Below are positions 5,706 to 42,901 of a DNA stretch of 45,372 nt, piece by piece. This DNA is from an uncultured Candidatus Saccharibacteria bacterium (GTDB lineage: Bacteria; Patescibacteriota; Doudnabacteria; UBA920). Numbering within the stretch: the stretch's first letter is position 1; the number at the start of each line of letters is the position of its first letter. A model generated the notes under the pieces. That model had not been told where the DNA came from. It searched no databases and saw only the letters and a list, made by a program, of their open reading frames with translations. The position numbers and the translations under genes are program-made. The stretch lies in NCBI GenBank assembly GCA_964473815.1, contig CAYYQK010000003.1, forward strand, positions 108,966 to 154,337, written 5' to 3'.

Positions 5706-5711
5706 TTAAAA

Positions 5712-6746: not shown

Positions 6747-6749
6747 GAC

Positions 6750-8117: not shown

Positions 8118-8132
8118 AAGAAAATTATACCA

Positions 8133-9295: not shown

Positions 9296-11569
9296 TTAAC
9301 GTCTTGGGCGGTCACCGCTGCGACGATCATGACCTCCGCGACCACCAAATCCTCCGCGTGCACCACCGCCACCACCACGTGGGCGATCGAAACTTCGTCC
9401 ACCATTCCCAGCGGCTTCTGACTGTGCTAATTGTTCTGGAGTTGGATCACCAGCAAATGGTTTGTGAGTTAAGTTAATGCGGCCCTGATCATCAATTTCA
9501 ATAACCTGAACCTTCAAACTGTCGCCAACTTTTACAACATCTTCTGGTTTGTTCACACGATAATTTGCAAGTTGCGAAACGTGAACCATCCCGTCGCGAC
9601 CTGGCAAAATTTCTACGAATGCACCGAAATCCATAATGCGAACTACTTTACCGTCGTAAATTTCGCCTGGTTCCACTTCTTTAACAATGTCTTGAATCAT
9701 CTTCATGGCTTTTTCTGCAGCTTCGGCATCAGTTGAAGTGATCATGACCAAACCATCGTCTTCAATGTCGATTTTCACACCAGGGCATTCCGCAATAATA
9801 CCATTGATGATTTTACCGCCACTACCAATAACATCGCGAATTTTTTCCGGATCAATTTTCAAACTAGTAATACGTGGAGCGTACGGAGAAAGTTCAGGAC
9901 GAGGCGCACTTAGCGCTTCCTTCATTTTCGAAATGATGTGCATACGTGCTGGATGCGCTTGCTGCAAAGCTTGTTCCAAAATTTCCGCAGTTAAACCTTT
10001 AACTTTAATATCGAGCTGAAGTGCTGTAACCCCTTCTTCGTTACCAGTTACTTTAAAGTCCATGTGACCATTGAAGTCTTCAATACCAGCAATATCTGTT
10101 AACACTTTAAAGTTATTTGTGTTGGATTCATCCATAACCAAACCCATTGCAACACCACCAATAATTTCTTTGATTGGCACACCAGCGTCCATGAGTGAAA
10201 GAGTCGAACCGCAAGTGCTCGCCATAGAAGTTGAACCGTTACTAGACATAGTTTCGGAAACTAAGCGCATAGTGTATGGGAATTCTTCTTGTGGTGGAAG
10301 TGCAACTTCTACAGCGCGTTCTGCCAAAGCCCCATGACCAATTTCACGGCGACCTGGACCACGAATCGGCGCTACTTCACCGACAGAGAAACCGGCCATA
10401 TTATAGTGGTGTATGTAACGCTTGCCGCGGCCTTCTGCCGGGTCTTCCATGCCATCAAGCATTTGTTCATCACCTTTACTGCCCAAAGTTACTACTGTTA
10501 GGACTTGGGTTTCACCGCGGGTAAACAAAGCACTGCCATGCGCGCGCGGTAAAATGCCGACTTCTGCAGTAATCTGACGAGTCTCGTTCATGGCGCGGCC
10601 ATCAACGCGACGATCGTGTTCCAAAATTTGCTTCTGCTGATACTTCTTCAAAATTTTATCAACCGCATTGTGAACTTCTTTTTCAAAATTAATATCTTCA
10701 TTTTCGCCAATTGCAACGGCAACCGCTTGCACAGCTTCGGCTTCCAGAGCAGCAACGTTAGCATCTCGTTCTTCTTTGGTTTTCACGTAAATGGCAGAGT
10801 CGATTTTTTCAGGCGTCAACAAATTAGCCACGTGTTCAAGAACACGAGGTTCAATTTCTTTACGGACAATCTTGTCAGTTTTTTCCCGACCAGCATCTTT
10901 GCGGAAATCTTCCTGCATTTTTGCAAGAGCAGCAAGATGAGTTTGAGCAAATTTGATACCTTCAACAATTTCACTCTCCGGCACAAACTGCGCACCAGCT
11001 TCCACCATAATAATGTGTTCAGCGGTACCGCAAACAATTAAATCTAGCGCGGATTTTTCGCGCATATCATGAGTCGGATTAGCCACAAACTGACCATCAA
11101 CTTTGGCAACACGAACTCCTGCAACTGGACCATCGAAAGGAATATCGGAAATATGCAATGCAGCACTAGCAGCGTTTACAGCCAACATGTCGGGATCGTT
11201 TTCACCATCAACAGAAAGAACTGTAACCACAACTTGCACATCGTTGCGCATAGAATCTGGGAACATTGGACGCAATGAACGGTCGATAACACGACCAGTC
11301 AAAATTGCATCATCGGTTGCGCGACCTTCGCGCTTTACCCAACGAGAGCCTTTAATTTTTCCAGCAGCGTACAGACGTTCTTCGTAATCTACTAATAGAG
11401 GGAAGAAGTCGATGCCGTCGCGCGGCTGAGTTTTCATAACAGCAGTTGCTAACACAACCGTGTCGCCAAGACGCGCCACAACAGCGCCATTGGCTTGACG
11501 CGCCAATTTGCCAGTTTGTAATTTCCACTGGCTTCCCGCAATATCTGCGGAAATTTCTTTAATATCCAT
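9296..11569 (-). CDS. pnp: Polyribonucleotide nucleotidyltransferase (PNPase) with an RGG-rich tail
   Basis: FFPL.VDY.ER.YAAGKI, SNGSTSMAS.CG, KH and S1 domains. Confidence 0.97.
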   Translation of the reverse strand: MDIKEISADIAGSQWKLQTGKLARQANGAVVARLGDTVVLATAVMKTQPRDGIDFFPLLVDYEERLYAAGKIKGSRWVKREGRATDDAILTGRVIDRSLRPMFPDSMRNDVQVVVTVLSVDGENDPDMLAVNAASAALHISDIPFDGPVAGVRVAKVDGQFVANPTHDMREKSALDLIVCGTAEHIIMVEAGAQFVPESEIVEGIKFAQTHLAALAKMQEDFRKDAGREKTDKIVRKEIEPRVLEHVANLLTPEKIDSAIYVKTKEERDANVAALEAEAVQAVAVAIGENEDINFEKEVHNAVDKILKKYQQKQILEHDRRVDGRAMNETRQITAEVGILPRAHGSALFTRGETQVLTVVTLGSKGDEQMLDGMEDPAEGRGKRYIHHYNMAGFSVGEVAPIRGPGRREIGHGALAERAVEVALPPQEEFPYTMRLVSETMSSNGSTSMASTCGSTLSLMDAGVPIKEIIGGVAMGLVMDESNTNNFKVLTDIAGIEDFNGHMDFKVTGNEEGVTALQLDIKVKGLTAEILEQALQQAHPARMHIISKMKEALSAPRPELSPYAPRITSLKIDPEKIRDVIGSGGKIINGIIAECPGVKIDIEDDGLVMITSTDAEAAEKAMKMIQDIVKEVEPGEIYDGKVVRIMDFGAFVEILPGRDGMVHVSQLANYRVNKPEDVVKVGDSLKVQVIEIDDQGRINLTHKPFAGDPTPEQLAQSEAAGNGGRSFDRPRGGGGGARGGFGGRGGHDRRSGDRPRR

Positions 11570-29151: not shown

Positions 29152-29227
29152 GGTGGCTGTAGTGTAATGGCAACACGGCGCTCTGTGGCAGCGCAATCGC
29201 GGGTTCGATTTCCCGTCAGCCACCCCA
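29152..29227 (+). tRNA. tRNA-His, anticodon GTG (complete second copy)
   Basis: G-1, acceptor gtggctg/cagccac, discriminator C, CCA, loop CT-GTG-GC; 8-nt T loop. Confidence 0.88.
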
Positions 29228-29231
29228 GACC

Positions 29232-29257
29232 AAAAATCGCCTGAAAGGCGGTTTTTT
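29232..29257 (+). terminator. Terminator after tRNA-His
   Basis: aaaaatcgcc-tgaaa-ggcggttttt. Confidence 0.75.
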
Positions 29258-29271
29258 GTTAAGATACAATT

Positions 29272-29811
29272 ATGAAGAATATTACTTTTATTACTGGTAA
29301 CCAAAATAAGGCTGATTACTTAGCAAAGTATCTTGGGTTTCCTGTAAAGCATTTAAAGCTGGATTTAGAAGAATTACAATCGCTCGACTTAAAAGAAATC
29401 GTTGAGCATAAAGTTAAGCAGGCTTATGAGATTGTTAAAGAACCAGTGATTGTTGAAGATGTATCTTTGGAGTTTTCTGCGTTAGGTAGATTGCCAGGAA
29501 CTTTCATAAAATTTTTTGTCGATGAAGTTCCATTTGAGACAATCTGTTCAATGCTAAACGATAAGACCCGCAAAGCTACTGCTCGATGCGTTTTTGGTTA
29601 TTACGACGGTAACGATTTACAATTATTTGAAAGTAGTCTCGATGGTGAAATAGCCGAAAGCCCGTCAGGAGAAAATGGTTACGGCTGGGATAAAATTTTT
29701 ATTCCTCAGGGATATACTCAAACCCGAGCTTCTTTAAATGAAGAAGACGACCGTAAAACATACCTTAAGATAAAACCTTTTGCACAGCTAAAAAGTTTCT
29801 TGGAAAAATAA
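29272..29811 (+). CDS. Non-canonical purine NTP pyrophosphatase (Ham1/ITPase family)
   Basis: FITGN.NK, EELQ, VED..L....L..LPG..IK, GENGYGWD.IF.P. Confidence 0.9.
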   Translation: MKNITFITGNQNKADYLAKYLGFPVKHLKLDLEELQSLDLKEIVEHKVKQAYEIVKEPVIVEDVSLEFSALGRLPGTFIKFFVDEVPFETICSMLNDKTRKATARCVFGYYDGNDLQLFESSLDGEIAESPSGENGYGWDKIFIPQGYTQTRASLNEEDDRKTYLKIKPFAQLKSFLEK

Positions 29812-29845
29812 CGGGTGCAAACCCTTATTTTTATAAACCCCCTCT

Positions 29846-30577
29846 ATGCCAAAGTTAAAACCTACAAAGAAATCTAAACCCGAAGTTCACAAACCGAAAA
29901 GAATTACTATCGGCGAATTGGTGTATCGCCAAATGAGAGAAGACCACGCTAAGTTTGGGACTATGCTAAAAGCTCAGCAGCCATACTTTGAGGCCACTCA
30001 AGATGCTTTGGAAAAGGTAAGACTAATTGGCGAGGCGTTAAATAAACAACCTCAACTGTGGGATAGTTTTAGAAAAGCGGCTGAAATAGAGCGCCAACTT
30101 TCTGAACCTATGCGGAAATTAGCAGAGCCGATGCGTCAGTTAAATGAGCATTTAGAAAAACTTAAAGGTATAGGCACATTTAGATTATCACCCGCACTGA
30201 CAGAGATGATAAAAAATATCTCTAAATTACCTATTCCCGAGCTACTGAAGCCAGACCCTGATGAAATGGAAATAATTACTTATTCACCGCCTCCAATCAC
30301 TGTTGTAAAAAATCAACTTAATAACTTGGAAAGTAAATTAGAAGATTTTAGCGAACAAATTAAAAACACAGTAACAGAACAATTTGACAAACTGGCCGAG
30401 CGAAGTATAATAAATGCAGGATATAAAGAGCAGATAGTGTATTGTGGAGCTTGTAACGCTCCTATATGCAAAGTGAAAAACCCTGTTCTCTATACCTTAA
30501 GTATTCGTTCTCAAATTTGCCCTAAATGCAACAAAAGATTAGAGCAACCACGAGACTTTAAAATCAAGGATATTTAG
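29846..30577 (+). CDS. Hypothetical coiled-coil protein with a C-terminal CxxC...CxxC zinc finger
   Basis: CGAC and CPKC near the C-terminus. Confidence 0.7.
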   Translation: MPKLKPTKKSKPEVHKPKRITIGELVYRQMREDHAKFGTMLKAQQPYFEATQDALEKVRLIGEALNKQPQLWDSFRKAAEIERQLSEPMRKLAEPMRQLNEHLEKLKGIGTFRLSPALTEMIKNISKLPIPELLKPDPDEMEIITYSPPPITVVKNQLNNLESKLEDFSEQIKNTVTEQFDKLAERSIINAGYKEQIVYCGACNAPICKVKNPVLYTLSIRSQICPKCNKRLEQPRDFKIKDI

Positions 30578-30599
30578 TTTTGTAAAAATTTAACTGTCA

Positions 30600-30686
30600 T
30601 AAGGCCTACGAGGTCTTATGGCTTGGCTTTACGAAGTCCAATTAGGATAACTCTTACGAGGGTTGCCCTAATTGGGCTTTTTTTGT
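30600..30686 (+). ncRNA. Putative structured RNA/attenuator upstream of the rep gene
   Basis: Three hairpins each capped by TACG with G-U pairs; the last sits on a 9-bp perfect stem ccaattagg/cctaattgg followed by a T run. Confidence 0.45.
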
Positions 30687-30691
30687 TTTCT

Positions 30692-30874
30692 ATGCCACAA
30701 CCTGAGCAAAATAAACTCAACAAGAAACAAAAAGAAGCTATGGCCGATGCCTTAGCCAGTTTTTTCTTTGATTTTTGGCAAAACAGTTCTAACCGACGGG
30801 GTAATGAAGTAGCTACCTTAGAAGTAGGTTCATCTTGTAGAGGGGGTTTCCCTACACCTAAGGTGGCTTCTTAA
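30692..30874 (+). CDS. Small hypothetical protein upstream of rep (60 aa, start moved to ATG 30692)
   Basis: MPQPEQNKLNKKQKEAMADALASFFFDFW...; follows the hairpin cluster. Confidence 0.45.
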   Translation: MPQPEQNKLNKKQKEAMADALASFFFDFWQNSSNRRGNEVATLEVGSSCRGGFPTPKVAS

Positions 30875-30896
30875 TTATCTCGGTAAAATCCCCTCT

Positions 30897-32057
30897 ATGG
30901 ACACAATAAGAATTAAAATTCCTAACGATAAGTTTCTGATTAAAGACCCTGCTTTTTTCAACGAAGTAAAAAGTAGCCATTTTACTAATTCCCCGAGGTT
31001 CAAAGTAGAAAAAACCAACAACGGTTTTAGGAACGAACAAAGTAAAAAAGGTTTTTATGCTCCCAAATTTAAGCTCTTGGATATGCTATTTGGTATTGCA
31101 GATAACCACTTGGTGGTAGAATTTTCAGCACCAAAACTTCTATACGGAACTAACTTAAAAGAGGTAACAGAAGCGGATTTACCCGAAATCATTACTAAAC
31201 TAAAACTATATCTTAAATCCATAGGAATAGGGATATTTGAAAAGAACTTAGAAAACGCCACTGTAACTTTAGTCGCCTACGCAAAGAATATTCCCATTTC
31301 ACATTTAGGCAAAACAACCGAAGTTTTACGAGTGTTATTACCGTTTGATTATCGACCTCGCTCAGAATTTAGGTTTACTTACAAACAAGATAATAGCCAC
31401 GCAGAGCTAAAATACTTCAACAATAATACTCATCTCGTCCTATATGACAAGCTCGCTGAATTGCTGGGTAAGCCCATTACAGACGAAGAAAAAAAGATTG
31501 CTGACTACTACAAAAAAGGAGTTATACCGCCAGAATACGAAAGCATCATCACAGAAACTTTGCGCTTTGAGCTAACATTGCACACTAAATTCGCGGTTAA
31601 GCAAGTTATGGAAAAACATTACGGCCGCAAGAATGACTATACCCTGAGTGAGGTTTTTAAGGACAAAATTAGAGACGAGGCTTTAAAGGCGGAAGTTAGT
31701 AATATTTTCAACCACCCGCTCAAGGAAATCGTATTATTGAGGTCATACGACCAAACCACATTCAATAAAATCATCGACCAGTTATGCAAAAACTTTTCCC
31801 AGTCTGCCGAATTACGGACTATGTTTGACATTATTTATACTCGTGGAATTGGCGAACTGAGAAAAGAAGTAACCAGCAAATCTTCTAAACGCACTTGGTT
31901 CAGGAAGAAGCAAAAGATAAAACAACTACTCAAAGAAATTGACTTACCACCACCGCAAGGCAACATTGATAACGCAAAAGTTATTGAATATATACTGTCT
32001 CAATTTGGCATTGAACCCAATATACGAGAACCGAAACAATTAGAAATCTTTACCTAA
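30897..32057 (+). CDS. Putative replication initiator (Phage_CRI/Rep_trans-like, rolling-circle type)
   Basis: N-terminal DT, EFSAPKLLYG.N, LYDK..E and LRFE motifs recalled from that superfamily; not verified by search. Confidence 0.5.
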   Translation: MDTIRIKIPNDKFLIKDPAFFNEVKSSHFTNSPRFKVEKTNNGFRNEQSKKGFYAPKFKLLDMLFGIADNHLVVEFSAPKLLYGTNLKEVTEADLPEIITKLKLYLKSIGIGIFEKNLENATVTLVAYAKNIPISHLGKTTEVLRVLLPFDYRPRSEFRFTYKQDNSHAELKYFNNNTHLVLYDKLAELLGKPITDEEKKIADYYKKGVIPPEYESIITETLRFELTLHTKFAVKQVMEKHYGRKNDYTLSEVFKDKIRDEALKAEVSNIFNHPLKEIVLLRSYDQTTFNKIIDQLCKNFSQSAELRTMFDIIYTRGIGELRKEVTSKSSKRTWFRKKQKIKQLLKEIDLPPPQGNIDNAKVIEYILSQFGIEPNIREPKQLEIFT

Positions 32058-32226
32058 ATAAGTATGACACTACCACCCTCTACTATGTTACCCTCGCTCA
32101 CCATACAAAAACCTTCAAAAATCACTCCCAAGTATTACCACAATAAGTATGCCAAAAGTGGCACTATTAGATACGGCAATATGTATGACACAGGCTTTGA
32201 AAGACCGCCCTGAATATGTATGACAC
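32057..32226. repeat. Iteron-like direct repeats AATA(A/T)GTATG(A/C)CA
   Basis: Copies at about 32058, 32142, 32178 and 32213; the last two are identical 14-mers aatatgtatgacac. Confidence 0.7.
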
Positions 32227-32265
32227 CTTCCCACTCTAATTAACCCTTAAAAATCTCTAATCACT

Positions 32266-32655
32266 ATGGATACTAATAACCAAACCTACGAAGAAAAAAT
32301 CATATATTCTATCTACGAAGAAACAATCGTCGAAATCTTGGATACCCAATTTGAAACCGAGGCTACGCCACAGCTCATTGAAGATATTACCAACGAACTT
32401 TACGCTCAAGATTATATTTACCCCGCCCTCATAGACTGTGTTCACCACACTCTCGAATACAACGAGTTAATAGAGCGAAACAAAAAAGCCAAAGATAGCA
32501 AACCGCATTACATAGTTAAATATAAAAATCCCAACGCTTATGTTGTGGATTTTACGGAAATAGGTATTTTCTTAACAGAGCAGGATGCAGAAAAATATAT
32601 ACAATTTCAAGACAAAGACGAATTTACTGAATACCTTATTGAGAAAATACAGTAA
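32266..32655 (+). CDS. Acidic hypothetical protein
   Basis: 129-aa ORF ending at a terminator. Confidence 0.7.
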   Translation: MDTNNQTYEEKIIYSIYEETIVEILDTQFETEATPQLIEDITNELYAQDYIYPALIDCVHHTLEYNELIERNKKAKDSKPHYIVKYKNPNAYVVDFTEIGIFLTEQDAEKYIQFQDKDEFTEYLIEKIQ

Positions 32656-32661
32656 AATCTA

Positions 32662-32688
32662 AAAACCCCAGCAACGGTCTGGGGTTTT
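32662..32688. terminator. Bidirectional terminator
   Basis: aaaaccccag/ctggggtttt between convergent genes. Confidence 0.75.
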
Positions 32689-32705
32689 ATTTCAAAAGAG
32701 TAGCC

Positions 32706-32927
32706 TTAAAACTTAAACAAATCTTCGACAGATACGCCTAAAGCTTTGGCGATTTTCTCAACATTTTTAAGCCCGACATTCCTTTCCCCTCTTTCAACTC
32801 CACCCATATAAGTTCTGTCTAAACCAGCCTTATTCGCTAAAGCCATTTGAGAAATATCCCCTTTTTGTAAGCGTATATCTCTTACTCTTTTGCCAAATTT
32901 TATTAGTATTTCGTCGCTTTTATTCAC
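32706..32927 (-). CDS. XRE-family HTH regulator, restriction-modification controller (C protein)-like
   Basis: FGKRVR..R...SQ..LA..AGLDRTY...VERG.RN..L.N...IA.AL.V. Confidence 0.88.
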   Translation of the reverse strand: MNKSDEILIKFGKRVRDIRLQKGDISQMALANKAGLDRTYMGGVERGERNVGLKNVEKIAKALGVSVEDLFKF

Positions 32928-32949
32928 CCTTTAAGGGTAGGCCTTAGAC

Positions 32950-32974
32950 GACTATAAGGCGACGGACTATGAGT
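32950..32974 (-). promoter_or_regulatory. Tandem C-box-like operator
   Basis: Minus strand actcATAGTC-cgtcgcc-ttATAGTC, about 22 nt upstream of the GTG start of the C-like gene. Confidence 0.65.
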
Positions 32975-33053
32975 ATCCTGATATTTATGATATATTATTG
33001 GAAACTACTGATACTTATAAGTATTCAGTAAAATAAGATAATCATATAATTCA

Positions 33054-34028
33054 ATGAAAAAATGTCCCTTTTGTGCAGAGGAGATACAAGAAAGTGCAGT
33101 GGTGTGTAAGCACTGTAAAAGCCCTCTGACCGCAACCTCCCCTGCTGTTGCGACAACAACGCCAACCAAACAACCGACACAGGTAAACTGGAAAAAGATT
33201 GGAAATATTTTTGGCACAATCTTTTTGATAGGTCTTGTCTTGAAGTTTTGGTATATTGGCATACCCGCAGTTGTTGCGTGGTATTTGTTTAAGAAGCGTA
33301 AGAACAAGTTTAGCCAACGCACCAACATAATTGCCACTGCGGTAGTAGCGGTAATCTTTATTGGGGCTGGCATAGCCAACGCTCACGGAAACAGGAAGCC
33401 CGAATTGACCATTACCGAACCGCAAGCCAATGCAAGTGTGCAGGCAAAGAGCATAACAATTAAGGGAAAGGTAAATCCTGCCAGCTCAACTGTGGTGGTT
33501 AATAACACACCTGCACAAGTAGACAGTAGTGGTAACTTCACCTATGACGCACCGCTTGAAAACGAAGCCAACACCATTACGGTTATTGCCACCAACGCTG
33601 GAAAAACTACACCACAAACTTTAACCGTCAGTCGTATTTTTACCCCAGAGGAAATGGCAGAGCGTGAACGGTTAAAGGCAGAAGCGGAAGCAAAGAAGCA
33701 GGCACAATTGGAAGCCCAACAAAAAGCCCAAGCGGAAGCTGACGCAAAGGCAAAGGCTGACCAAGCCGCTTACGAGCGAAGCAAAGCAGGTCAGTTATGT
33801 AAGGCTCACCCTGATTGGGATAAGGAAACCTGCCAAAGAGTTGCAGACCGCAACTACTGGGTAGGTATGACATATGAACAACTTGTCGCTTCATACGGTA
33901 GTAAACCTAACAGTGCCAACCCTTCAAACTATGGTGGTAAAACACAGTGGCAGTGGTGCTGGCACAGTTACAGTCCGTCTTGCTTCTACGACAACAATGA
34001 TGACGGTATAATTGACAGTTACAACTAA
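33054..34028 (+). CDS. Membrane-anchored surface protein: zinc ribbon, TMs, Ig-like domain, Ala/Lys coiled coil, small C-terminal domain
   Basis: CPFC...CKHC, three hydrophobic segments, P.LTITEP...G.F...PL....NTITV.ATN..G, AEAKKQAQ repeats. Confidence 0.8.
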   Translation: MKKCPFCAEEIQESAVVCKHCKSPLTATSPAVATTTPTKQPTQVNWKKIGNIFGTIFLIGLVLKFWYIGIPAVVAWYLFKKRKNKFSQRTNIIATAVVAVIFIGAGIANAHGNRKPELTITEPQANASVQAKSITIKGKVNPASSTVVVNNTPAQVDSSGNFTYDAPLENEANTITVIATNAGKTTPQTLTVSRIFTPEEMAERERLKAEAEAKKQAQLEAQQKAQAEADAKAKADQAAYERSKAGQLCKAHPDWDKETCQRVADRNYWVGMTYEQLVASYGSKPNSANPSNYGGKTQWQWCWHSYSPSCFYDNNDDGIIDSYN

Positions 34029-34032
34029 CCCT

Positions 34033-34323
34033 ATGGCTGAAAAAGAACTAAACCCGCAGGCAGTAAAAGACTGCCCATATTGTGCGGAACATATACAAGC
34101 AGAAGCGATAGTATGTAAGCACTGTGGCTATAATCTCACTACTGGCAAGCCTGTCGAATGGTTGAAGCCCAGCCCACCTACTTCGCCACCCACTCAAAAT
34201 CAAGTTACAGCAAAAAGCGGTATAGGAGACGGGGTTCGGTTAGGATGCGGGATGTTTATTGTCTTACCTATTCTGATAATTATCGGTATAATCATATTTA
34301 TTGCTATTGTCGGTAGCTTCTAA
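34033..34323 (+). CDS. Small zinc-ribbon membrane protein
   Basis: CPYCAE.IQ..A.VCKHCG plus C-terminal TM; start moved to ATG 34033. Confidence 0.75.
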   Translation: MAEKELNPQAVKDCPYCAEHIQAEAIVCKHCGYNLTTGKPVEWLKPSPPTSPPTQNQVTAKSGIGDGVRLGCGMFIVLPILIIIGIIIFIAIVGSF

Positions 34324-34346
34324 TAAAAACAAAAAATAACTTTTTG

Positions 34347-35369
34347 TTATCGCAACAGGAAGTTATTTTTAATTGTATTTTCTAAGGAGTAATTATTAGA
34401 GTGCTTTAGCATACCCAAATATGACTGTACGGTTTGGTAGAAACTATCAAATTCAAGCTCGCCTGCCGTTAATAAATCATCCTTATAAGATAATTTCTTT
34501 AACATCCTGTTTTTGGTCTTTCGTCTTATTCCAATATATTTAGGCAAAATAATGTATCCTAAGAAGTCTATCCCCTGTGTATACTTACGCAGTTCAATTT
34601 TATTAGGATGTAAATAAACCCCTAACCTACCTGATACAAAGACTGAAACCCATTTCAGTATTTCTTCCAAGTAATTTCTATCTTTATGGACAATTGCAAA
34701 ATCATCAGCATAACGAAAGTAATACTTTACCCCAAGTTTATGTTTTACAAACTGGTCTAATTCATTCAGGAAAATGTTGGCAAAGATTTGTGATGTCAGA
34801 TTACCAATAGGAATGCCTTTGCCCTGTGAAAAGCTCCCGAGTATTTCTCGTATCAACCATAGAAATCGCTTATCCTTTATTCTCTTTTCGATAATTTGCA
34901 GAAGCAAGTTATGAGGAACACTGTGAAAAAATTGTTTTATATCACACTTCAAAACATATGTTTGCCGAGAGCCATTCTGACTTTCTTCCCTTAATGCTTT
35001 TCTGAGGTTTTCGACGGCGCGATGCGAACCCTTATCAAGCCTTGATGAGTAAGAATGAAAGATAAAAGTAGGGTCAAAAATTTCATACAATTTAGCAAAG
35101 ACCAAATGGTGAACCAGCCTATCTCTTACAGTAGCTTTGCTTATAATTCTGTGTTTTGGGTCATAGATGTGAAAGGTTGTATACCGCCCGTGTCTGTATG
35201 TTTGATTGACGAGCTGATGATGCAAGTTGAACATATTGTCTTCCAAATATCGTTCAAAGTGCATTACATCACTTTTCGAAATCTTACCGCGCTTAAACTC
35301 ATCCCAAGAAACCAGTATGTTTTCCAAACTAACTAAGAAAGGATAATTAACACTATGAACAACTTGCAT
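34347..35369 (-). CDS. DGR reverse transcriptase
   Basis: DPK.R.I.KA.VRDR.VHH, KCDIKQFF.S, GIPIGNLTSQIFAN, RYADDF, IDFLGY; no internal stops. Confidence 0.96.
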   Translation of the reverse strand: MQVVHSVNYPFLVSLENILVSWDEFKRGKISKSDVMHFERYLEDNMFNLHHQLVNQTYRHGRYTTFHIYDPKHRIISKATVRDRLVHHLVFAKLYEIFDPTFIFHSYSSRLDKGSHRAVENLRKALREESQNGSRQTYVLKCDIKQFFHSVPHNLLLQIIEKRIKDKRFLWLIREILGSFSQGKGIPIGNLTSQIFANIFLNELDQFVKHKLGVKYYFRYADDFAIVHKDRNYLEEILKWVSVFVSGRLGVYLHPNKIELRKYTQGIDFLGYIILPKYIGIRRKTKNRMLKKLSYKDDLLTAGELEFDSFYQTVQSYLGMLKHSNNYSLENTIKNNFLLR

Positions 35370-35720
35370 AATAAAGATTATTTAGACGAAATCCCGATAA
35401 TTAGAAAAGTATACGAACTTTACAAACTATACTACGGTTATTTAGAATTGTTCCCGAAAAAAGACAAATATGCTTTAGGCAGTAAATGTGAATTATACAT
35501 TATCGCCGTCCTCGAGCTCTTGCTATCCGCAGGTAGTCTTCCCAAAGAAAGCAAGGGTGAAGTAATACAACAAGCCAGTGTTAAGTTTGATACGCTAAAA
35601 GTTTTGTTGCGGATGGCCAGAGAGCTTGGGTTATTAGATAACAAGAAGTATATTGCGCTACAAACCTGTATCCAAGAAATAGGCCGTATGCTCGGTGGAT
35701 GGCAACGCTCCTTAAAGTAA
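35355..35720 (+). CDS. avd: DGR accessory variability determinant (Avd, four-helix bundle)
   Basis: FPKKDKYALG, LK.LLR.A.EL, KY.....I.EIGRMLGGW. Confidence 0.9.
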   Translation: MNNLHNKDYLDEIPIIRKVYELYKLYYGYLELFPKKDKYALGSKCELYIIAVLELLLSAGSLPKESKGEVIQQASVKFDTLKVLLRMARELGLLDNKKYIALQTCIQEIGRMLGGWQRSLK

Positions 35721-35751
35721 CAGGAGTTCCTCAATCAAGAGGAACTCCTGT
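35720..35751. other. Perfect 13-bp hairpin just 3' of the TR (minus-strand sense)
   Basis: acaggagttcctc-aatcaa-gaggaactcctgt. Confidence 0.85.
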
Positions 35752-35763
35752 AACCAGACACAA

Positions 35764-35884
35764 CCCGAGAACGACGAGACCACCAGCGTAGTTGTCGTTG
35801 GCATTGTCGAGGTTGATCCTGTTGTCGAAGTTGAGGTTGTCGTCGTTGGCGTTGAAGTAGAGCGAGTTGTCAGACGACTGCCAC
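35764..35884 (-). repeat. DGR template repeat (TR)
   Basis: 121 nt; in the VR frame it has 10 AAY codons and 31 adenines, none at third codon positions. Confidence 0.97.
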
Positions 35885-36141
35885 CACTCAACGAAAATTG
35901 CCGTTTCCCATCCATACCACCAGAACATTAGCCTTACCGCATTTCTACTTATACTCTAATTGTTCTTGTATTTAATCCGCCTATAACAGGCTTAAGAAAC
36001 AGCAAGTAGTGTCTGATGTTTTGGTATACTCTCTTGCAATCCACTCGAACTGCAAAACTCTGATACTTAGAAAACTCAGGATTTCGGTAACGACAATCCG
36101 TAGACGGCCGTGTATTAACCTACTTTCAGAGATATTATACC

Positions 36142-36184
36142 AAAAAGAAAAGCGGGGGCAATGATATTTCACATTGCGCCCCGT
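36142..36184 (-). terminator. Hairpin/terminator downstream of target 1
   Basis: cgggggcaatg...cattgcgccccg with a minus-strand T run. Confidence 0.7.
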
Positions 36185-36267
36185 ACGATTGATAGATTTC
36201 GGAGACCAAAGTCCAAGAGCCAAAGCCCTGAACCAAAAACAAGTTTCCAAAATCCGAAGACCTTTCA

Positions 36268-37260
36268 CTACCCGAGAACGACGAGACCACCAGCGCAGTA
36301 GTCGTAGGCATCGTCGAGGACGATCCCGTAGTCGAAGAGGAGGTTGCCGTCGCGGGCGCCGAAGTAGAGCGAGCAGTCAGACGACTGCCACTGCATTACG
36401 GCAAGGTCGAGCAAGGGCGTTTTGCTGTCCCGAGCTAATACATCTGGAAAAGCCACCATCGCTCCCGCAGCGTCGAAACCGCCAGCAAGCAGGAACTTGT
36501 CAGGCAGGCTCGCCATCTGTTCACGGTCGGCGTGGACGCTGAAACCTTGCAGGCAATTCGGAAAGTAAATCCCGACCACGTTGCCTTGCTTCATCGCTTC
36601 GACGAGCCGTTCGTGACGAGAGCCTTCCACTATAGTGGTCTGACCAGCGAGAGTTCCTTTGCGGTAGTTGTAAAAACTGCGCTTGGGAAACTCTGCCTTG
36701 TAGCTTCGCTCAACGGCGGGCAGGAACACTTCGTCCAATACCCGACCATAGTCGTCAACCTGTGTCTGCGGCAGATAGAACGGCAAATGAACGCCGTTGG
36801 TGATGAGTTGGGTCTTTTCGTCAACCCGCAAACCATCCAAGATTGCCTCGGCACGGTTCTCAAACTCGTCCGCCGAAATCGCCTCTTTCAGGACAAAGCA
36901 ATCAACAATGCGAGCAAGCCGCTCGGCGTAGTTAAGCTTCGTGTGTTTCAGAAAGTAGTTGCGACTTGCGTCCGTGACTGAAGCGGTAAGTGTGCGAGGC
37001 GGGATGCGACGACCGTGCTTGTCGAACCACTTAATAATCGCATCGGTCAAACTAACTTCTTTCTCGCCACGCAGGATAGCTTCAACCGCTTCCATTCCGC
37101 CGAGAATGTTCACAAGGGCTTCGTTCTGCCCAAGGTTCATCTCGCCGTATTTGGGTGTTGCAAGCTGCTTCCCCGCCAGCAGTCCGTCAATGCCTTTACG
37201 CCCATTGAGCAAATCAGCAAGCGTAATAACTTCGTTAATTTTCAAATCTCCGTGTTTCAC
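36268..37260 (-). CDS. DGR target protein 1 (330 aa from GTG 37260), C-terminal variable region
   Basis: Ends in VR1; SD aaggagga 7 nt before the GTG; paralog of target 2. Confidence 0.92.
   Translation of the reverse strand: MKHGDLKINEVITLADLLNGRKGIDGLLAGKQLATPKYGEMNLGQNEALVNILGGMEAVEAILRGEKEVSLTDAIIKWFDKHGRRIPPRTLTASVTDASRNYFLKHTKLNYAERLARIVDCFVLKEAISADEFENRAEAILDGLRVDEKTQLITNGVHLPFYLPQTQVDDYGRVLDEVFLPAVERSYKAEFPKRSFYNYRKGTLAGQTTIVEGSRHERLVEAMKQGNVVGIYFPNCLQGFSVHADREQMASLPDKFLLAGGFDAAGAMVAFPDVLARDSKTPLLDLAVMQWQSSDCSLYFGARDGNLLFDYGIVLDDAYDYCAGGLVVLG
36271..36391 (-). repeat. Variable repeat VR1
   Basis: 17 mismatches to TR, all at TR adenines. Confidence 0.97.
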
Positions 37261-37350
37261 TGTAAAATCCTCCTTCAGGCTATTTGCCCGAATTTTCTGC
37301 AAATTCCACTACCCGTGGATTGGGAACTTTCCGTGATGAAAAGATGTATA

Positions 37351-37379
37351 AATATAGCATATTTTTAGCTTTTAGTCAA
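37351..37379 (-). promoter_or_regulatory. Promoter of target 1
   Basis: TTGACT-N17-TATATT with TG extension. Confidence 0.7.
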
Positions 37380-37410
37380 CCCTTCGACCAAAAGCTATTT
37401 TTGACTTAAT

Positions 37411-37452
37411 AAACAAAAAAACGGGGCGATGAAATTGCACATCGCACCCGTT
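37411..37452 (-). terminator. Hairpin/terminator downstream of target 2
   Basis: aacggggcgatg...catcgcacccgtt with a minus-strand T run; homologous to the target 1 hairpin. Confidence 0.7.
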
Positions 37453-37527
37453 GTAGAAAATTCGAGACCAAAGACCAGAACCCAAAAGCCGAGACAAGCC
37501 CAAGCTTCCGAACTCCAAAATCCGACA

Positions 37528-38463
37528 CTACCCGAGAACGACGAGACCACCAGCGCAGAAGACGCTGGCACCGTCGAGGCCGATCCCGCTGCCGAAGCTG
37601 AGGTAGTCGCCGCTGGCGAAGAAGTAGAGCGAGCGGCCAGACGACTGCCACTGCATTGCGGCAAGGTCGAGAAGCGGAGTAGAGCCGTCCCGAGCAAGAA
37701 CGTCGGGATAAGCAATCATTGCAGCTGCGGCATCAAAGCCACCTGCCAGCAAAAACTGCTCTGGCAAACTATCCATCTGCTCACGGTCGGCATCCACCGA
37801 ATACCCTTGCAGGCAATTCGGGAAGTAAATGCCAACCACTGTGGCTTTCTTCATTGCCTCGACCAACCGCTCGTGGCGAGAACCAGCGACGATTGTCGTT
37901 TGTTCCGCCAAAGAACCTTTACGGTAGTTATTGAATGGTCGGTTACCGCCGAAATGCTCTGCATAGGAGTTATTCACTCCCGTCAGGAACACCTCGTCCA
38001 GAACCTGACCGTAGTCTTCGACATCCATCTGCGGAATGACGAAAGGCAGATAAGTGCCTTTGAGCAGATTGCTCACCCTATCGTCTTCACGGATGCCATC
38101 GATAATTGCTTCGCTCCTCGTCTCAAAGTCCGCCGCCGAAATGTTGTAAAGATACTTTGGCGAGTTGAGATAAGTTTGCAACCGAGCCAGTCGCTGACCG
38201 TAGTCGAGCGTTGGCTGATTGAAGCGATAGTCACGGTCGGGTTTCGTGGTATTAGCCTTCAACCCCCGAGGGCGAATGCGAACACCGTTACGGTTGAACA
38301 GGGACACGTTCTGCGGTCTTGCCTTGAGCAGCAGTTTACTGTCAACGACTTCCGTCGCCAATGTTCCTGCGGCTATGGCTCTGGCGTTGTTTTCGCCAAG
38401 ATTTTTGACCAAAGCGTTAAGGTCGCCTGTTTTCCAGTCCTTAATAAAAAATTCCGATTTCAT
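37528..38463 (-). CDS. DGR target protein 2 (311 aa), C-terminal variable region
   Basis: Ends in VR2; SD aaggagga; paralog of target 1. Confidence 0.93.
   Translation of the reverse strand: MKSEFFIKDWKTGDLNALVKNLGENNARAIAAGTLATEVVDSKLLLKARPQNVSLFNRNGVRIRPRGLKANTTKPDRDYRFNQPTLDYGQRLARLQTYLNSPKYLYNISAADFETRSEAIIDGIREDDRVSNLLKGTYLPFVIPQMDVEDYGQVLDEVFLTGVNNSYAEHFGGNRPFNNYRKGSLAEQTTIVAGSRHERLVEAMKKATVVGIYFPNCLQGYSVDADREQMDSLPEQFLLAGGFDAAAAMIAYPDVLARDGSTPLLDLAAMQWQSSGRSLYFFASGDYLSFGSGIGLDGASVFCAGGLVVLG
37531..37651 (-). repeat. Variable repeat VR2
   Basis: 21 mismatches to TR, all at TR adenines. Confidence 0.97.
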
Positions 38464-38548
38464 TGTCTTCCTCCTTGGGCTTCATTGCCCGAATGGTGAT
38501 TTGCCTCTACCCCGAGGCAGGGACTGCTTGGTATCAAGCAGATGTATA

Positions 38549-38577
38549 AATATAACATATTTGAGCGCATTAGTCAA
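38549..38577 (-). promoter_or_regulatory. Promoter of target 2
   Basis: TTGACT-N17-TATATT with TG extension; same architecture as the target 1 promoter. Confidence 0.7.
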
Positions 38578-38639
38578 TAATTTGACTGTCCCCTAACTTT
38601 CCTATATAATCTTATATAGCTAACTATATACGATTTAAT

Positions 38640-39692
38640 ATGACTAATTACGAAAAGCGACTACTAACTATACCCGCCTCTGTTGCCACCAAAATTGGCC
38701 AAATTGACGAGTTAAAAGGTCAATGGGTGTCTGGGGCGCAATTAAACCCACAGGTGCTGGGACGGCTTAAAAAGTCTGTTCTTGTTACATCCACAGGAGC
38801 TTCTACTCGCATAGAGGGAGCTATATTGTCGGATGAAGATGTAGAAAAATTCGTGAAAGGGATTGGTTTGCAAAAATTCTCCGATAGAGATAAAGGCGAA
38901 GTAAAAGGTTACTACGAATTACTGAACACAGTTTTTGATAACTGGCGGGCTATACGATTAAGCGAAAGCACTGTAAAACACTTCCACAAAGAACTGCTGA
39001 AATATGTAGGCAAAGACGAGAGGCATCGCGGTGAATACAAGATTGCCGACAACACTGTAGAAATGAAAGATGCATCTGGGAAAACAATTGCTGTGATGTT
39101 CAAACCAACACCAGCATACTTAACACCCAAAGAGATGCAAGAACTGGTTGAGTGGACGCAAACAGCAACAAAGGAAAAGAAATACCACCCGCTACTGATA
39201 ATTGCAAACTTCATAGTTGAGTTCTTAAACATCCACCCTTTCACAGACGGGAACGGCAGACTTAGCCGAATTTTAACTAACCTCTTATTGTTAAAAGAGG
39301 GCTATTTATATGCGCCTTATGTGTCGCACGAAAAGATTATTGAAGATAACAAACCAGACTACTATTTAGCATTACGAAAAAGTCAAAAGACCATTAAGAC
39401 TGCAAAGGAGGACATAATCCCGTGGCTTGAATTTTTCTTAGACACATTTTTACAACAATCTCGTATGGCCGTTGAACTCCTATCTGCTGAGAATGTAGAA
39501 AAGTTATTCTCCCCTACCCAGCTTAAAGTGTGGGAGTATTTACAAAAAGTAGATGAGGCAACTCCTATGGAAATTAGCGAACAAATGAGTGTTCCTCGCC
39601 CAACTGTCAATCAAGTGTTAGACAAACTGCTCAAATTAAAACGCATTGAACGGCTTGGTGCGGGTAGAGCAACAAGATACAAAAAACTATAA
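38640..39692 (+). CDS. Fic family protein with a C-terminal winged-helix
   Basis: HPFTDGNGRLSR catalytic motif; N-terminal STRIEG inhibitory-type motif. Confidence 0.93.
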   Translation: MTNYEKRLLTIPASVATKIGQIDELKGQWVSGAQLNPQVLGRLKKSVLVTSTGASTRIEGAILSDEDVEKFVKGIGLQKFSDRDKGEVKGYYELLNTVFDNWRAIRLSESTVKHFHKELLKYVGKDERHRGEYKIADNTVEMKDASGKTIAVMFKPTPAYLTPKEMQELVEWTQTATKEKKYHPLLIIANFIVEFLNIHPFTDGNGRLSRILTNLLLLKEGYLYAPYVSHEKIIEDNKPDYYLALRKSQKTIKTAKEDIIPWLEFFLDTFLQQSRMAVELLSAENVEKLFSPTQLKVWEYLQKVDEATPMEISEQMSVPRPTVNQVLDKLLKLKRIERLGAGRATRYKKL

Positions 39693-39697
39693 AAGTT

Positions 39698-41329
39698 ATG
39701 GTAAAAACTCCCTCTCAAAAACCAAAGCTTGGTGTTGGTTATATTCGGGAAAGCACCGAGGAACAGGACAAGGGCTTTTCCCCTGCCAACCAAAAACGCA
39801 CTATAGAAGATTACGCGGCTAAGAACAATATCAAAATTACGGATTGGTATAAAGACTTAGTAACTGGAACGAAAGCCAGCAAACGCGATGACTTTCAACG
39901 AATGATTACCGATGCAATGGAAAAGAAGTTTGAAGTTATTTTAGTATTCCATACTTCGCGCTTTGCCCGTAATGTATCAGAAGCCCGACAATACAAAGAC
40001 CTACTTCGTAAGAAACAAGGTATTGATGTAATTTTCGTAACTCAACACTTTGGCGATTATGATAGCCCAAGTGGCTTTTTGAACGAAGGCGTAAACGAGT
40101 TGTTTGATGAATACTACTCTAAGCAACTCAGTTTTTGGGTGCGTTCAACACTAATGGAAAAGCGGAAACAAGGAAAACAAATTGGAAGCGTTCCATTGGG
40201 TTATTACAAAAAGAAGCTGGGTTTTGATAAGGATAAAGGTAGAGCAATTTATGCCAAAGAATGGTTAGTGCATCCACAGGAAAGTAAATTGGTGAAAAAG
40301 ATATTTACACTCTACGCTACTGGCAAATATTCTTATGCTGATGTAGCCGCAGAGCTAAATAAAATGGGAGCTAAGACAAAAAGCGGTTATCCTTTCACTT
40401 ATAGTTCAATCAAAGATATTTTGGACAACCAAACTTATCTTGGCAAAGTATTTTCTAAACGGAGAGGTTATCCAACCCACACAGGTGAACATCCAGCTAT
40501 TATTACACAAAAGCTTTTTGATAAGGTGCAAGAAGTTATTGCGCAACGACGAAATACACAGGGTAGACCCGTTGCTCAACATAGGTTTTATCTCTTGCAG
40601 GATTTAATCTACTGCTGGAATTGCCGTAAATATCTAAAGGGTAAGGAAGATAATCCCAATCCTCGCGCTCAGATGTTACCAAAAATGTATTGTGAAACTC
40701 ACCAATATGTAGACGCCAAAGGTGTTAGACACGAAAAGCTAACTTACCACTGCAAGATTGCGAGGGAAACCAAATCGTGCAAACAGCCCATTGTTGCGGC
40801 AGATATAATTGATAAGCAAGTTATCGCTTTAATGGAAGGGTTTAAGCTTCCTAATGATGTGATTGAGATGACAGTCAATAGATTAAAGGTCTTATTCAAG
40901 CACGCTCAGCGTTCAGTAAAAGATTTAGATACTGTTGCAAAATTAGAAGCTAAAAAGAAAAAACTAAACTGGATGTTCGCCAATACCGAAGAACTAACCG
41001 AGGCTGACTATATAAAACAGTTGCGGGAGCTTAACAACGAGCTTCAAAAATATGATGATTTGGGTTTAGTAAAAAATAACTCTGTAACCAAAGAAACCGA
41101 ATACATAAAAAAGACCGAGAAGTTCTTAAAGAATTTCAAACAATTCTGGCGTTCTGACATTGGTGACGAAGAACGCAGGGCTTGGATACAAATGACAATT
41201 AAGCGGGTATGGGTTAAAAATCAGAAAGTTATAGCCATAGAACCGCACGATGATTTTAAGCCTTTATTCGCAGCGCATAGAAAAGTCTTGGTTCAAGCCC
41301 CGTCATCCACCCCACAAAGAACGAACTGA
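39698..41329 (+). CDS. Large serine recombinase A
   Basis: GYIRESTEEQ catalytic motif, SRFARN, recombinase domain, zinc ribbon, coiled coil. Confidence 0.93.
   Translation: MVKTPSQKPKLGVGYIRESTEEQDKGFSPANQKRTIEDYAAKNNIKITDWYKDLVTGTKASKRDDFQRMITDAMEKKFEVILVFHTSRFARNVSEARQYKDLLRKKQGIDVIFVTQHFGDYDSPSGFLNEGVNELFDEYYSKQLSFWVRSTLMEKRKQGKQIGSVPLGYYKKKLGFDKDKGRAIYAKEWLVHPQESKLVKKIFTLYATGKYSYADVAAELNKMGAKTKSGYPFTYSSIKDILDNQTYLGKVFSKRRGYPTHTGEHPAIITQKLFDKVQEVIAQRRNTQGRPVAQHRFYLLQDLIYCWNCRKYLKGKEDNPNPRAQMLPKMYCETHQYVDAKGVRHEKLTYHCKIARETKSCKQPIVAADIIDKQVIALMEGFKLPNDVIEMTVNRLKVLFKHAQRSVKDLDTVAKLEAKKKKLNWMFANTEELTEADYIKQLRELNNELQKYDDLGLVKNNSVTKETEYIKKTEKFLKNFKQFWRSDIGDEERRAWIQMTIKRVWVKNQKVIAIEPHDDFKPLFAAHRKVLVQAPSSTPQRTN
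41290..41314 (+). other. Displaced 3' end of tRNA-His (T arm, acceptor strand, CCA); putative attR of element A and junction of element B
   Basis: gg-TTCAAGC-cccgt-catccac-c-cca; catccac pairs 7/7 with gtggatg at 29009-29015. Confidence 0.85.
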
Positions 41330-42901
41330 TGTTAATTCATCGGTTCGTTCTTTGTTTATAGGGTGTTTCGTTGGTTCTGATTTTTGATATTGCACTTCGA
41401 GCTTTTTATAACCGCTCAGAACTGGCTCAAACCACTTATGCATTTCAATATTCAATGCTCCATCTTTAAGTGTGAATGCCGAACCCATTGCAGAAAATAT
41501 CTCTTTTTTAGTATTGATACTACCACTCGTGAACTTTTCTTTAGCGTGAGTTGCAAAATCAAACACCTTCTCAGTTAGCTCCAACCAGTTTACAGCACGA
41601 ACCTCTGTTTCTTCTCGCAGCTGCTTTAACTGTACTATTTTAGATTGCAATATTTTCTTTTCTGATAAATACTCATCATCAGTAATAAGATCCCGATATC
41701 GCATTTTAGTCAGATTATCTAATTGATTTTGTAACTCCAGCAAGGTGCTGCTCTGTGATTGATGCTTATCACTACGAATAGCGATCTCCTGATCATTCCA
41801 GTTATTCAGAATTTCTACTGCCCAGTCACGAAATTCAGGAAGTATCTGGAGTTGTGACAACTTTACCGTTATCTGATTATCTAATTCAGATTCTGCTATT
41901 ACCTTCTTTTGAGAACAACTCACATACTTCTTTTTACCCGTACAGTGATAATAATCATATCGCTTGTTTTCACCAGTCGATTTGATCTTTTTAAATTTAG
42001 TTTCAGCAGTTACATGGGCGCCGCATTCTCCACATCTAATAATCCCGGAGAAAGGATGTTCATGACGTTTAGGACGTGGTTTACCTTGTTTTTGTCCTAA
42101 TAATTCTTGCACACGTTCATATTGCTGAATGGTTACCATCGGCTCATGAATACCCTGATAAGTATGGCCATTCCATTCGATTATACCAGCGTAGAACTTG
42201 CTATAGAACATACTATATAACCCACTCAAAGATAAAGGCTTTCCACCTCTTAGCTTTCGTTGTATTGTACGGAAGCCCCAGTCATCATTCACAATTTTTA
42301 AAATCTGTCGTACAGAGTAGTTGCCAGTCAGCATTAGCATCCACATCTGCTTTACCATATCAAAGCGTTCAGGATCCTTTACAATCGTCTTTTCCAACTT
42401 GTCATTTAAGTAACCCAAACGAGCAAGGTTAGGTTGCCATCCCTTTTGTAATTTGCTCTCCATTCCACGTAAAGTATTCTTCCTAAGGTCTAAAATAAAC
42501 TGGTTGGCCATACCACTTTCAAGACTGAGCAATAATACACTATCTTCTGGAAGATAAGTACGATCATAAGTCTGAATAGCTTTAATTACACCATTCTGCA
42601 ACATCCATTGGATAGTACCACTATCAACCGGATTGCGTGAAAGACGATTAATTTGCCAGCATAAAATTCCATCAGCTTTACCCTGCTGAATTGCGTTTAA
42701 CATCTCTCCAAATAAAGGACGATCAGATGGCTTTTTGGCTGATTTGGATTCTTTATAAATCCCAACAACTTCTAGCTGTTGATCAGTAGCCAAATTCGTT
42801 AAACGATTTACTTGATCTTCAATGGATTGGATTTGGCGATCTTCGGATTCACTACTCTTTCTAGCGTATAGGAAATATCGCAGAGGTGGTTTTATGGTCA
42901 T
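41303..42901 (-). CDS. Large serine recombinase B
   Basis: YARKSSE...Q..SIEDQ, RL.RN..D, P.GY, C.ECG zinc ribbon; stop codon lies in the tRNA 3' fragment. Confidence 0.93.
   Translation of the reverse strand: MTIKPPLRYFLYARKSSESEDRQIQSIEDQVNRLTNLATDQQLEVVGIYKESKSAKKPSDRPLFGEMLNAIQQGKADGILCWQINRLSRNPVDSGTIQWMLQNGVIKAIQTYDRTYLPEDSVLLLSLESGMANQFILDLRKNTLRGMESKLQKGWQPNLARLGYLNDKLEKTIVKDPERFDMVKQMWMLMLTGNYSVRQILKIVNDDWGFRTIQRKLRGGKPLSLSGLYSMFYSKFYAGIIEWNGHTYQGIHEPMVTIQQYERVQELLGQKQGKPRPKRHEHPFSGIIRCGECGAHVTAETKFKKIKSTGENKRYDYYHCTGKKKYVSCSQKKVIAESELDNQITVKLSQLQILPEFRDWAVEILNNWNDQEIAIRSDKHQSQSSTLLELQNQLDNLTKMRYRDLITDDEYLSEKKILQSKIVQLKQLREETEVRAVNWLELTEKVFDFATHAKEKFTSGSINTKKEIFSAMGSAFTLKDGALNIEMHKWFEPVLSGYKKLEVQYQKSEPTKHPINKERTDELTSVRSLWGG
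41315..41354 (+). terminator. 17-bp hairpin directly after the tRNA CCA
   Basis: caaagaacgaactgatg-ttaatt-catcggttcgttctttg (one G-U pair), followed by ttta. Confidence 0.8.

Follow-up and report, generated by a model that had tools for sequence, protein, structure and literature searches.

The locus described here is a diversity-generating retroelement (DGR) in which the avd gene is reversed between the template (TR) and the reverse transcriptase (RT) gene and meets the latter head-to-head, the two start codons being contained in a shared stretch of 15 nucleotides. The organization of the region and of its relatives indicates that the template is probably transcribed as a self-contained RNA unit, and that avd and RT probably constitute a divergent gene pair with promoters located inside each other's coding sequence. 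The analysis concerned the whole stretch of DNA of 45,372 nucleotides, hereafter the window, to which all the positions refer. The features of the retroelement are the following:

34347 to 35369, minus strand: DGR reverse transcriptase (RT), 340 aa, with IGNLTSQ and YADD.
35355 to 35369, both strands: head-to-head overlap of the avd and RT starts, 15 nt, ATGAACAACTTGCAT.
35355 to 35720, plus strand: avd (accessory variability determinant), 121 aa, antisense to TR and RT, stop TAA at 35718-35720.
35717 to 35754, minus strand: hairpin of 13-16 bp (13-bp core), overlapping the avd stop and followed by UACUUUAA.
35763 to 35884, minus strand: TR, whose GC-rich invariant 3' segment (35763-35787) is IMH*-like.
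35891 to 36021, minus strand: core of an RT-16-like structured RNA, directly 5' of TR.
36122 to 36114, minus strand: TAGGTTAAT motif, upstream limit of the conserved sequence around the structured RNA.
36134 to 36161, minus strand: predicted promoter of the TR RNA, TTGCCC-16-TATAAT with extended TG; TGGTATAAT at 36142-36134.
36268 to 37302, minus strand: target gene 1, 344 aa (longest ORF), with VR1 (36270-36391) at its 3' end.
37528 to 38463, minus strand: target gene 2, 311 aa, a paralogue of target 1, with VR2 (37530-37651).

Along the minus strand the order is target 2 with VR2, target 1 with VR1, TR, the reversed avd and RT, and the interval between TR and RT harbours no further ORF besides avd. 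Pfam searches returned a match of the RT ORF to RVT_1 (1.1e-25) and of the avd ORF to bAvd, PF22296 (1.3e-16, residues 15-119); the product of target gene 1 has no Pfam match. The IGNLTSQ and YADD of RT correspond to the [I/L]GxxxSQ and YxDD motifs that distinguish reverse transcriptases of DGRs. TR, VR1 and VR2 form a three-copy repeat family: both VRs finish at the stop codon of the target gene, and a GC-rich, IMH-like segment of 25 nt, GCTGGTGGTCTCGTCGTTCTCGGGT, is identical across the three copies. A cruciform-type inverted repeat following the IMH of the VR is not a universal attribute and accompanies 34% of the DGRs in Wu et al. 2018 (PMC5758913). Inside the repeat, all the mismatches between template and variable copies fall on minus-strand adenines of TR, 17 of 17 in VR1 and 21 of 21 in VR2. 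As the mismatches sit on the adenines of this strand, TR and RT are assigned to the minus strand with avd antisense between them, an arrangement that the initial annotation had already proposed and with which the ORF positions agree.

The same signature is visible across environmental samples. When VR2 in runs X1, X3 and X7 is compared with the window, 22 of 22 differences are on TR adenines and the flanks are identical; the TR stretch used in the alignment (35752-35884) has 133 positions, of which no more than 31 are adenines. These differences between metagenomes indicate that the element is active in nature. Each of the defining DGR features tested, namely RT motifs, adenine-only TR/VR mismatches, a 3' VR with an IMH-like segment and ongoing mutagenesis, was found, and the locus is an ordinary diversity-generating retroelement of CPR type that is active in nature.

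The host is a member of the Patescibacteria (CPR), as its PNPase (9296-11569) shares 75-83% identity with proteins of Patescibacteria/Doudnabacteria. The DGR resides on a chromosomal island adjoining tRNA-His. The sequence is found in wastewater and activated-sludge metagenomes, and metagenome assemblies break at the VRs.

The layout belongs to a catalogued class. In Wu et al. 2018 (NAR 46:11, PMC5758913), architecture B3 is defined as 'TR-(avd)-RT', with parentheses denoting the reverse strand, and makes up 90% of the CPR set. The locus displays precisely this organization, with a reversed avd, no other accessory gene and a CPR host, the last being a typical rather than a strictly defining trait. 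It has in common with B3 DGRs the TR/avd/RT order and orientation, the CPR host and the upstream targets with a C-terminal VR; the targets are devoid of a recognisable domain in both, and there is no defining difference. A survey of avd orientation, which the initial annotation had proposed as a check, covered 80 genome loci encoding RT relatives with 42-56% identity, which come almost entirely from Patescibacteria MAGs. In 78 of them a homologue of avd is placed on the opposite strand and abuts the 5' end of RT; the two exceptions are L059, in which avd is downstream of RT, and L078, in which the contig is cut. The order VR, 245-470 nt, TR, (avd), RT recurs in the ∼55 loci in which TR and VR are detectable by adenine-only mismatches. 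The head-to-head abutment is thus a feature of the entire RT clade and not a peculiarity of this locus. The geometry described in the initial annotation is sound, but the layout is not unusual: it proves to be a routine, described class, as the initial annotation had allowed that it might, reversed avd is the norm for CPR DGRs in the catalogue, and the locus is one more example. The word promoter is absent from the main text of Wu et al. 2018 (PMC5758913), and the parts of that paper examined contain no account of start-codon overlap or of TR-flanking RNA for B3; newness cannot be claimed for either feature on the strength of these parts.

The first component of the proposed template unit is a structured RNA domain at the 5' edge of TR. 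Rfam RT-16 (RF03019) gives sub-threshold full-length matches to the window (36065-35892 on the minus strand, 28.3 bits) and, at the equivalent place, to L003 (29.7 bits) and L040 (40.5 bits), against a gathering score of 50; at the gathering threshold, 14 relatives returned no RT-family matches. As the scores are below the Rfam threshold, the element is designated RT-16-like and not a member of RT-16. In all three loci the RT-16 alignment falls on the 5' edge of TR, and the two RNAs share the blocks CUAC..GC, AUAAAAUACA and GGU together with the enclosing helix. RT-16 is one of the RT-1 to RT-19 motifs reported by Weinberg et al. 2017 (PMC5737381); the main text of that study assigns only RT-10 to a DGR, that of BPP-1, where it is situated between TR and brt.

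Conservation of the fold is supported by covariation. RNAalifold applied to a MAFFT alignment of 41 loci yielded 28 consensus pairs, 25 of which exhibit compensatory changes. For a seed of 23 sequences, 87.8% of cells pair compared with 61.6% after shuffling, and the covariation score is 0.76 compared with 0.26 for shuffled alignments (0 of 500 shuffles reach 0.76) and 0.13-0.23 with slid partners. A covariance model comprising a 113-position core and built without the window sequence matches the window at 36021-35891 on the minus strand (55.2 bits, E 7.7e-11) and makes a single match in each of 47 further non-seed loci. Wherever TR has been mapped, the match is at its 5' edge and on its strand, including L040 and L059, in which TR is inverted relative to RT. 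As the matches follow the inverted TR in these two loci, the RNA domain travels with TR and not with RT.

Upstream of this domain lies the predicted promoter. Among the relatives an extended -10 element (TGnTAnAAT) is located ∼100-135 nt upstream of the RNA core, and a conserved TAGGnnAAT motif follows it at a distance of 11 nt. Extended -10 matches on the TR strand peak between -850 and -750 from the RT start, with 29 in ∼72 loci, and the other bins of the histogram mostly contain 0-3 matches. The TGGTATAAT of the window was also picked by an independent sigma-70 scan and would direct transcription from a start site at ∼36127. Promoter rules for CPR are not established, and the scan, which covered 34000-38700, yielded convincing sites solely upstream of the TR RNA and of the individual target genes; it disclosed no usable promoter for avd or RT in this interval. 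The RNA data consist of three runs (two metatranscriptomes and an RNA-Seq library that bears the label metagenomic), represented by unstranded Logan contigs with a depth of 2-4: one contig, X25 (35953-36103), lies within the RNA leader, and two others, X25 (35323-35473) and X26 (35302-35498), cross the avd/RT start junction.

At the opposite end of the template, a hairpin begins just past the end of the TR/VR homology (MFE -31.9 kcal/mol, z -5.5). Stems of at least 8 bp between the end of TR and the avd stop are present in 55 of 78 loci, compared with 14% of control windows, and for stems of at least 10 bp the proportions are 54% of loci and 5% of control windows. Read on the TR strand, the hairpins of relatives have a T-rich tail (4 T or more in 8) in 41 of 55 cases and an A-rich head in just 8 of 55; this asymmetry indicates that the orientation of the hairpin is that of a TR terminator and not of an avd terminator. 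Many of the relatives' hairpins are textbook terminators. In the window the stem is followed by 4 U in 8 nt (UACUUUAA) and a terminator scan made no call there: the hairpin is terminator-like for the TR RNA, and it may terminate poorly.

Taken together, promoter, 5' structured domain, TR and terminator would define an autonomous template RNA of ∼420 nt, extending from ∼36127 to ∼35710 on the minus strand. Since a unit of this kind is self-contained, avd and RT can be a divergent pair of protein genes that would need no operon with the template RNA. A different reading, less likely but to be taken seriously, is that RT has no promoter of its own and is translated from a TR transcript running through the hairpin and the antisense strand of avd. 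The hairpin would then act as an attenuator that keeps the ratio of RT to TR RNA low, and avd transcription would converge with this transcript over 366 bp. The initial annotation had pointed out that the RT mRNA must either begin in the antisense of avd or read through it, possibly as part of the TR transcript, an alternative that follows directly from the geometry. The weak U-tract of the window hairpin leaves room for read-through at this locus, and the RT strand has no strong promoter apart from that preceding TR. In addition, histograms of RT promoter-like sites inside antisense avd across 67-77 loci show no positional peak, which is what read-through would lead one to expect, and BPP-1 co-transcribes TR and brt (PMC12875486). 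On the other hand, the T-rich tail seen in 41 of 55 relatives is typical of an efficient intrinsic terminator, and the conservation of a terminator-like hairpin therefore argues against simple co-transcription from TR to RT in most relatives. The RNA contigs point weakly in the same direction, as they cover 35302-35498 and none covers 35510-35670, at very low depth. The self-contained template RNA is retained as the preferred reading.

The second half of the proposal concerns the junction between avd and RT. On the plus strand ATGAACAACTTGCAT reads ATG AAC AAC TTG CAT (M-N-N-L-H), the start of avd, and on the minus strand ATG CAA GTT GTT CAT (M-Q-V-V-H), the start of RT; the codon for His5 in each gene is the complement of the partner's ATG. 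The idea that the N-terminal His of RT is maintained as the complement of the avd ATG was considered and rejected as a general rule: in a subclade with His7, the codon lies outside the avd ORF. The overlap itself, 15 nt between avd starting at 35355 on the plus strand and RT starting at 35369 on the minus strand, was reported in the initial annotation and is borne out both by the sequence and by the N-termini of homologues. RT homologues that are 50-60% identical can be aligned from residue ∼3-5 (P0005, MNVVHKSYEDIVSLDNI; P0004, MKVFHDIYDNLITPENL; P0008, MIHNIYDNLISLENI). The ATG at 35369 is the sole RT start that retains the conserved L-[IV]-S-x-E-N-L block; a start at the in-frame TTG (35327) would interrupt this block. 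In the database, RT (P0001) is called from M36 with a length of 305 aa and the loss of 35 conserved residues; this truncation looks like that of a gene caller avoiding an overlap. For avd, the only candidate starts between the upstream stop and the region matching the bAvd profile are the ATG at 35355 and a TTG at 35364. Even the worst-case combination of starts (RT at 35327, avd at 35364) leaves a gap of 36 nt, which is still too short for two promoters.

The tight spacing is shared by the relatives. In 25 confident loci, where both starts are ATG and neither is more than 8 codons away from its expected place in the alignment, the relation between the two starts ranges from a 14-nt gap to a 36-nt overlap (-14 to +36), with a median of +2, equivalent to a shared CATG. 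By comparison, 109-176 nt separate the genes in each of the three remaining divergent pairs of the window. The near-zero spacing of avd and RT is not due to chance, given that it recurs in relatives and that the other pairs of the window are wider. As there is no intergenic DNA, the promoter of avd must lie inside the RT ORF, as the initial annotation had maintained. More generally, the promoter and any 5' UTR of either gene would fall within the coding sequence of its partner, and with no DNA between the genes the two mRNAs would carry complementary 5' ends.

The antisense overlap of the mRNA 5' ends could itself be regulatory, as the initial annotation had suggested, either through transcriptional interference or through an RNA duplex, thereby limiting or coupling the levels of Avd and RT and throttling mutagenesis. 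This further step is rather unlikely. It is consistent with the near-zero or overlapping spacing being conserved rather than drifting in the 25 loci, with the greater distance kept by the other divergent pairs of the window, and with the two unstranded RNA contigs that span the junction; but overlaps may just be tolerated in genomes as compact as those of CPR, the element is evidently active, and the duplex would amount to only 15 nt if the mRNAs were leaderless.

Leaderless mRNAs would have -10 boxes in the first codons of the partner gene and a 5'-terminal AUG as start; they would require no 5' UTR and be complementary over only 15 nt. Such an organization is improbable, even though two hexamers occur at a fitting distance: AATAAT, which occupies -12 to -7 relative to the RT ATG, and GATAAT (35342-35347), which occupies -13 to -8 relative to the avd ATG. 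Nor does any of the 25 loci have a Shine-Dalgarno 4-mer in the interval 5-12 nt before RT. However, a -10-like hexamer is present at the right distance in only 2-4 of 25 relatives, avd is preceded by AAGGA 12 nt upstream of its start, and AT-rich sequence yields hexamers of this kind by chance, those of the window deriving from conserved RT codons (N-Y). The GATAAT of the window occupies a place equivalent to that of TGATATnAT, which occurs on the avd strand at RT codons 10-13 in 16 of 77 loci, all from one subclade. As a candidate avd promoter this subclade motif was set aside: it may be a by-product of the conserved D-x-I-I-S codons, and the window does not have the TG.

It is very improbable that the true starts are located downstream (for example RT M36) and leave an ordinary intergenic promoter region, an eventuality that the initial annotation had envisaged: an automatic gene caller did choose M36 for RT, giving 305 aa, but RT residues 3-35 align to the N-termini of homologues only 50-60% identical, avd contains after codon 4 no in-frame ATG, GTG or TTG that would keep the bAvd domain starting at residue 15, and both ATGs find support in the N-termini of homologues.

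A divergent avd/RT pair alongside a self-contained template RNA remains the favoured interpretation, and a bolder generalization can be put forward tentatively. The template of B3 (CPR) elements might be an autonomous small RNA in which the structure that recruits protein or primes synthesis is placed 5' of TR, RT-16-like, and not 3' as in BPP-1, implying a different geometry of cDNA priming; the conserved avd/RT overlap might in turn render the mRNAs antisense at the 5' end, coupling or limiting the synthesis of Avd and RT. In this form the proposal is rather unlikely and is offered as speculation.

Some consequences are of a practical nature. The N-termini of DGR RTs annotated in CPR genomes are likely to be systematically short, because gene callers truncate RT to avoid the overlap (305 versus 340 aa). 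To our knowledge, all the mechanistic understanding of DGR RNA derives from BPP-1, and the largest natural group of DGRs has another layout. The unit made of promoter, 5' domain, TR and terminator would provide a concrete RNA of ∼420 nt, with which the mechanism of the DGR layout most common in nature could be tested. As intergenic DNA is consistently lacking between them, avd and RT likewise form a clean case for asking whether a mutagenic enzyme is regulated by divergent, overlapping promoters.

Two known systems offer a term of comparison. An 'excludon'-type antisense organization consists of overlapping divergent transcription units. The avd/RT pair is alike in being formed by divergent genes whose transcripts would have to overlap at their 5' ends. 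The DGR of Bordetella phage BPP-1 (mtd-VR, avd-TR-brt) is built from the same parts, namely RT, Avd, adenine-specific TR/VR and a GC-rich invariant 3' segment, and both elements have a structured RNA adjacent to TR. The arrangement of these parts is different. In BPP-1 avd is co-oriented with TR and located upstream of it, whereas the avd of this locus is reversed and follows TR, ahead of RT. The structured spacer of BPP-1 (Rfam RT-10) is 3' of TR, before brt; in the locus described here the structured RNA is 5' of TR. Finally, the TR of BPP-1 is embedded in the avd-TR-brt transcript, whereas here a terminator-like hairpin follows TR and the template RNA is probably autonomous.

The diversity-generating retroelement (DGR) is active in natural populations. 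Between metagenomes, VR2, the repeat of the second target gene, displays 22 differences across window positions 37559-37637, all of which (22/22) fall on TR adenines, and metagenome contigs break up at both VRs, at 36266-36299 and 37530-37555. One low-depth contig from a single metagenome run, X7, joins the region just 3' of VR1 to VR2 (36263 / 37544), leaving out 1280 nt and including 19 letters without a match; it represents either a population variant that has only one target gene or a chimera formed in assembly, where the ends of the VRs are repeated.

The GC content of the target genes (36268-38463) is far above that of RT, of avd and of the genome around them, with values in the window of 0.51-0.54 versus 0.35 for RT and approximately 0.40 for the genome, and a peak beside the VR (0.59-0.63). 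This difference extends across the clade: among 48 related loci its median is +12.5 points, it exceeds +5 in 41 and target-gene GC is lower in none.

The DGR looks to be housed in an integrated element spanning 29153-42901, whose components are as follows.

29153-29227: tRNA-His, at one end of the putative element
30897-32057: rolling-circle Rep-like protein, with a Phage_CRI match at threshold
within 29153-42901: HTH regulator
within 29153-42901: zinc-ribbon membrane proteins
38640-39692: Fic/HTH protein
39698-41329: large serine recombinase, first of two
41303-42901: large serine recombinase, second of two, at the other end of the putative element

The public call of the RT gene (34347-35369, minus strand) yields a protein of 305 aa starting from M36, and the conserved N-terminus is thereby lost. 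The short call was apparently made to avoid the overlap with avd, and other CPR annotations probably share this truncation: several database homologues, for example, begin at V/L of SLENL.

Three features characterize the surroundings of TR.

35717-35754: strong hairpin located between the end of TR and the stop codon of avd; its tail on the TR strand is T-rich
35891-36122, minus strand: conserved structured RNA with strong covariation, directly 5' of TR
36114-36161, minus strand: predicted extended -10 promoter TGGTATAAT and conserved TAGGnnAAT motif

The hairpin, which has a counterpart at this position in 55 of 78 loci, has the orientation of a predicted terminator of the TR RNA. On the other side of TR, the TAGGnnAAT motif lies 11 nt past the extended -10 TGGTATAAT, and the same pair recurs in approximately 20 relatives. 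Target gene 1 has a terminator-like hairpin (∼36150-36184) that overlaps the -35 region of this candidate promoter; it was spotted by eye, the sigma-70 scan making no call there, whereas the scan did pick up the homologous hairpin downstream of target gene 2 (37445-37426). The -10 region of the TR promoter (36130-36145) is complementary over 16 nt (88%) to a segment at the beginning of the core RNA domain (36019-36034), and this inverted repeat yields a second extended -10-like site, TGGTATACT, on the plus strand and directed away from TR.

The same RT clade includes variant architectures. In one locus (L040, 196-911) the RNA domain and TR share the strand of avd and lie downstream of it, so that avd-RNA-TR run leftward and RT rightward, and the 15-nt overlap of the avd and RT starts is retained; in another (L059, 6008-6646) avd lies downstream of RT and co-oriented with it, and TR is inverted. 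In L018 (region 5409-8122) the DGR lies ∼450 nt upstream of the 16S rRNA gene, with a group I intron match following at 7837-8122, and L006 harbours a LOOT RNA (679-808, 74.6 bits) ∼1 kb upstream of the first VR.

The structured RNA 5' of TR is found in approximately 70 of the 80 related loci, seeds and model matches combined, and keeps company with TR where the latter is inverted (L040, L059). Among known RNA families it bears a likeness to RT-16 of Rfam, with a score under the threshold.
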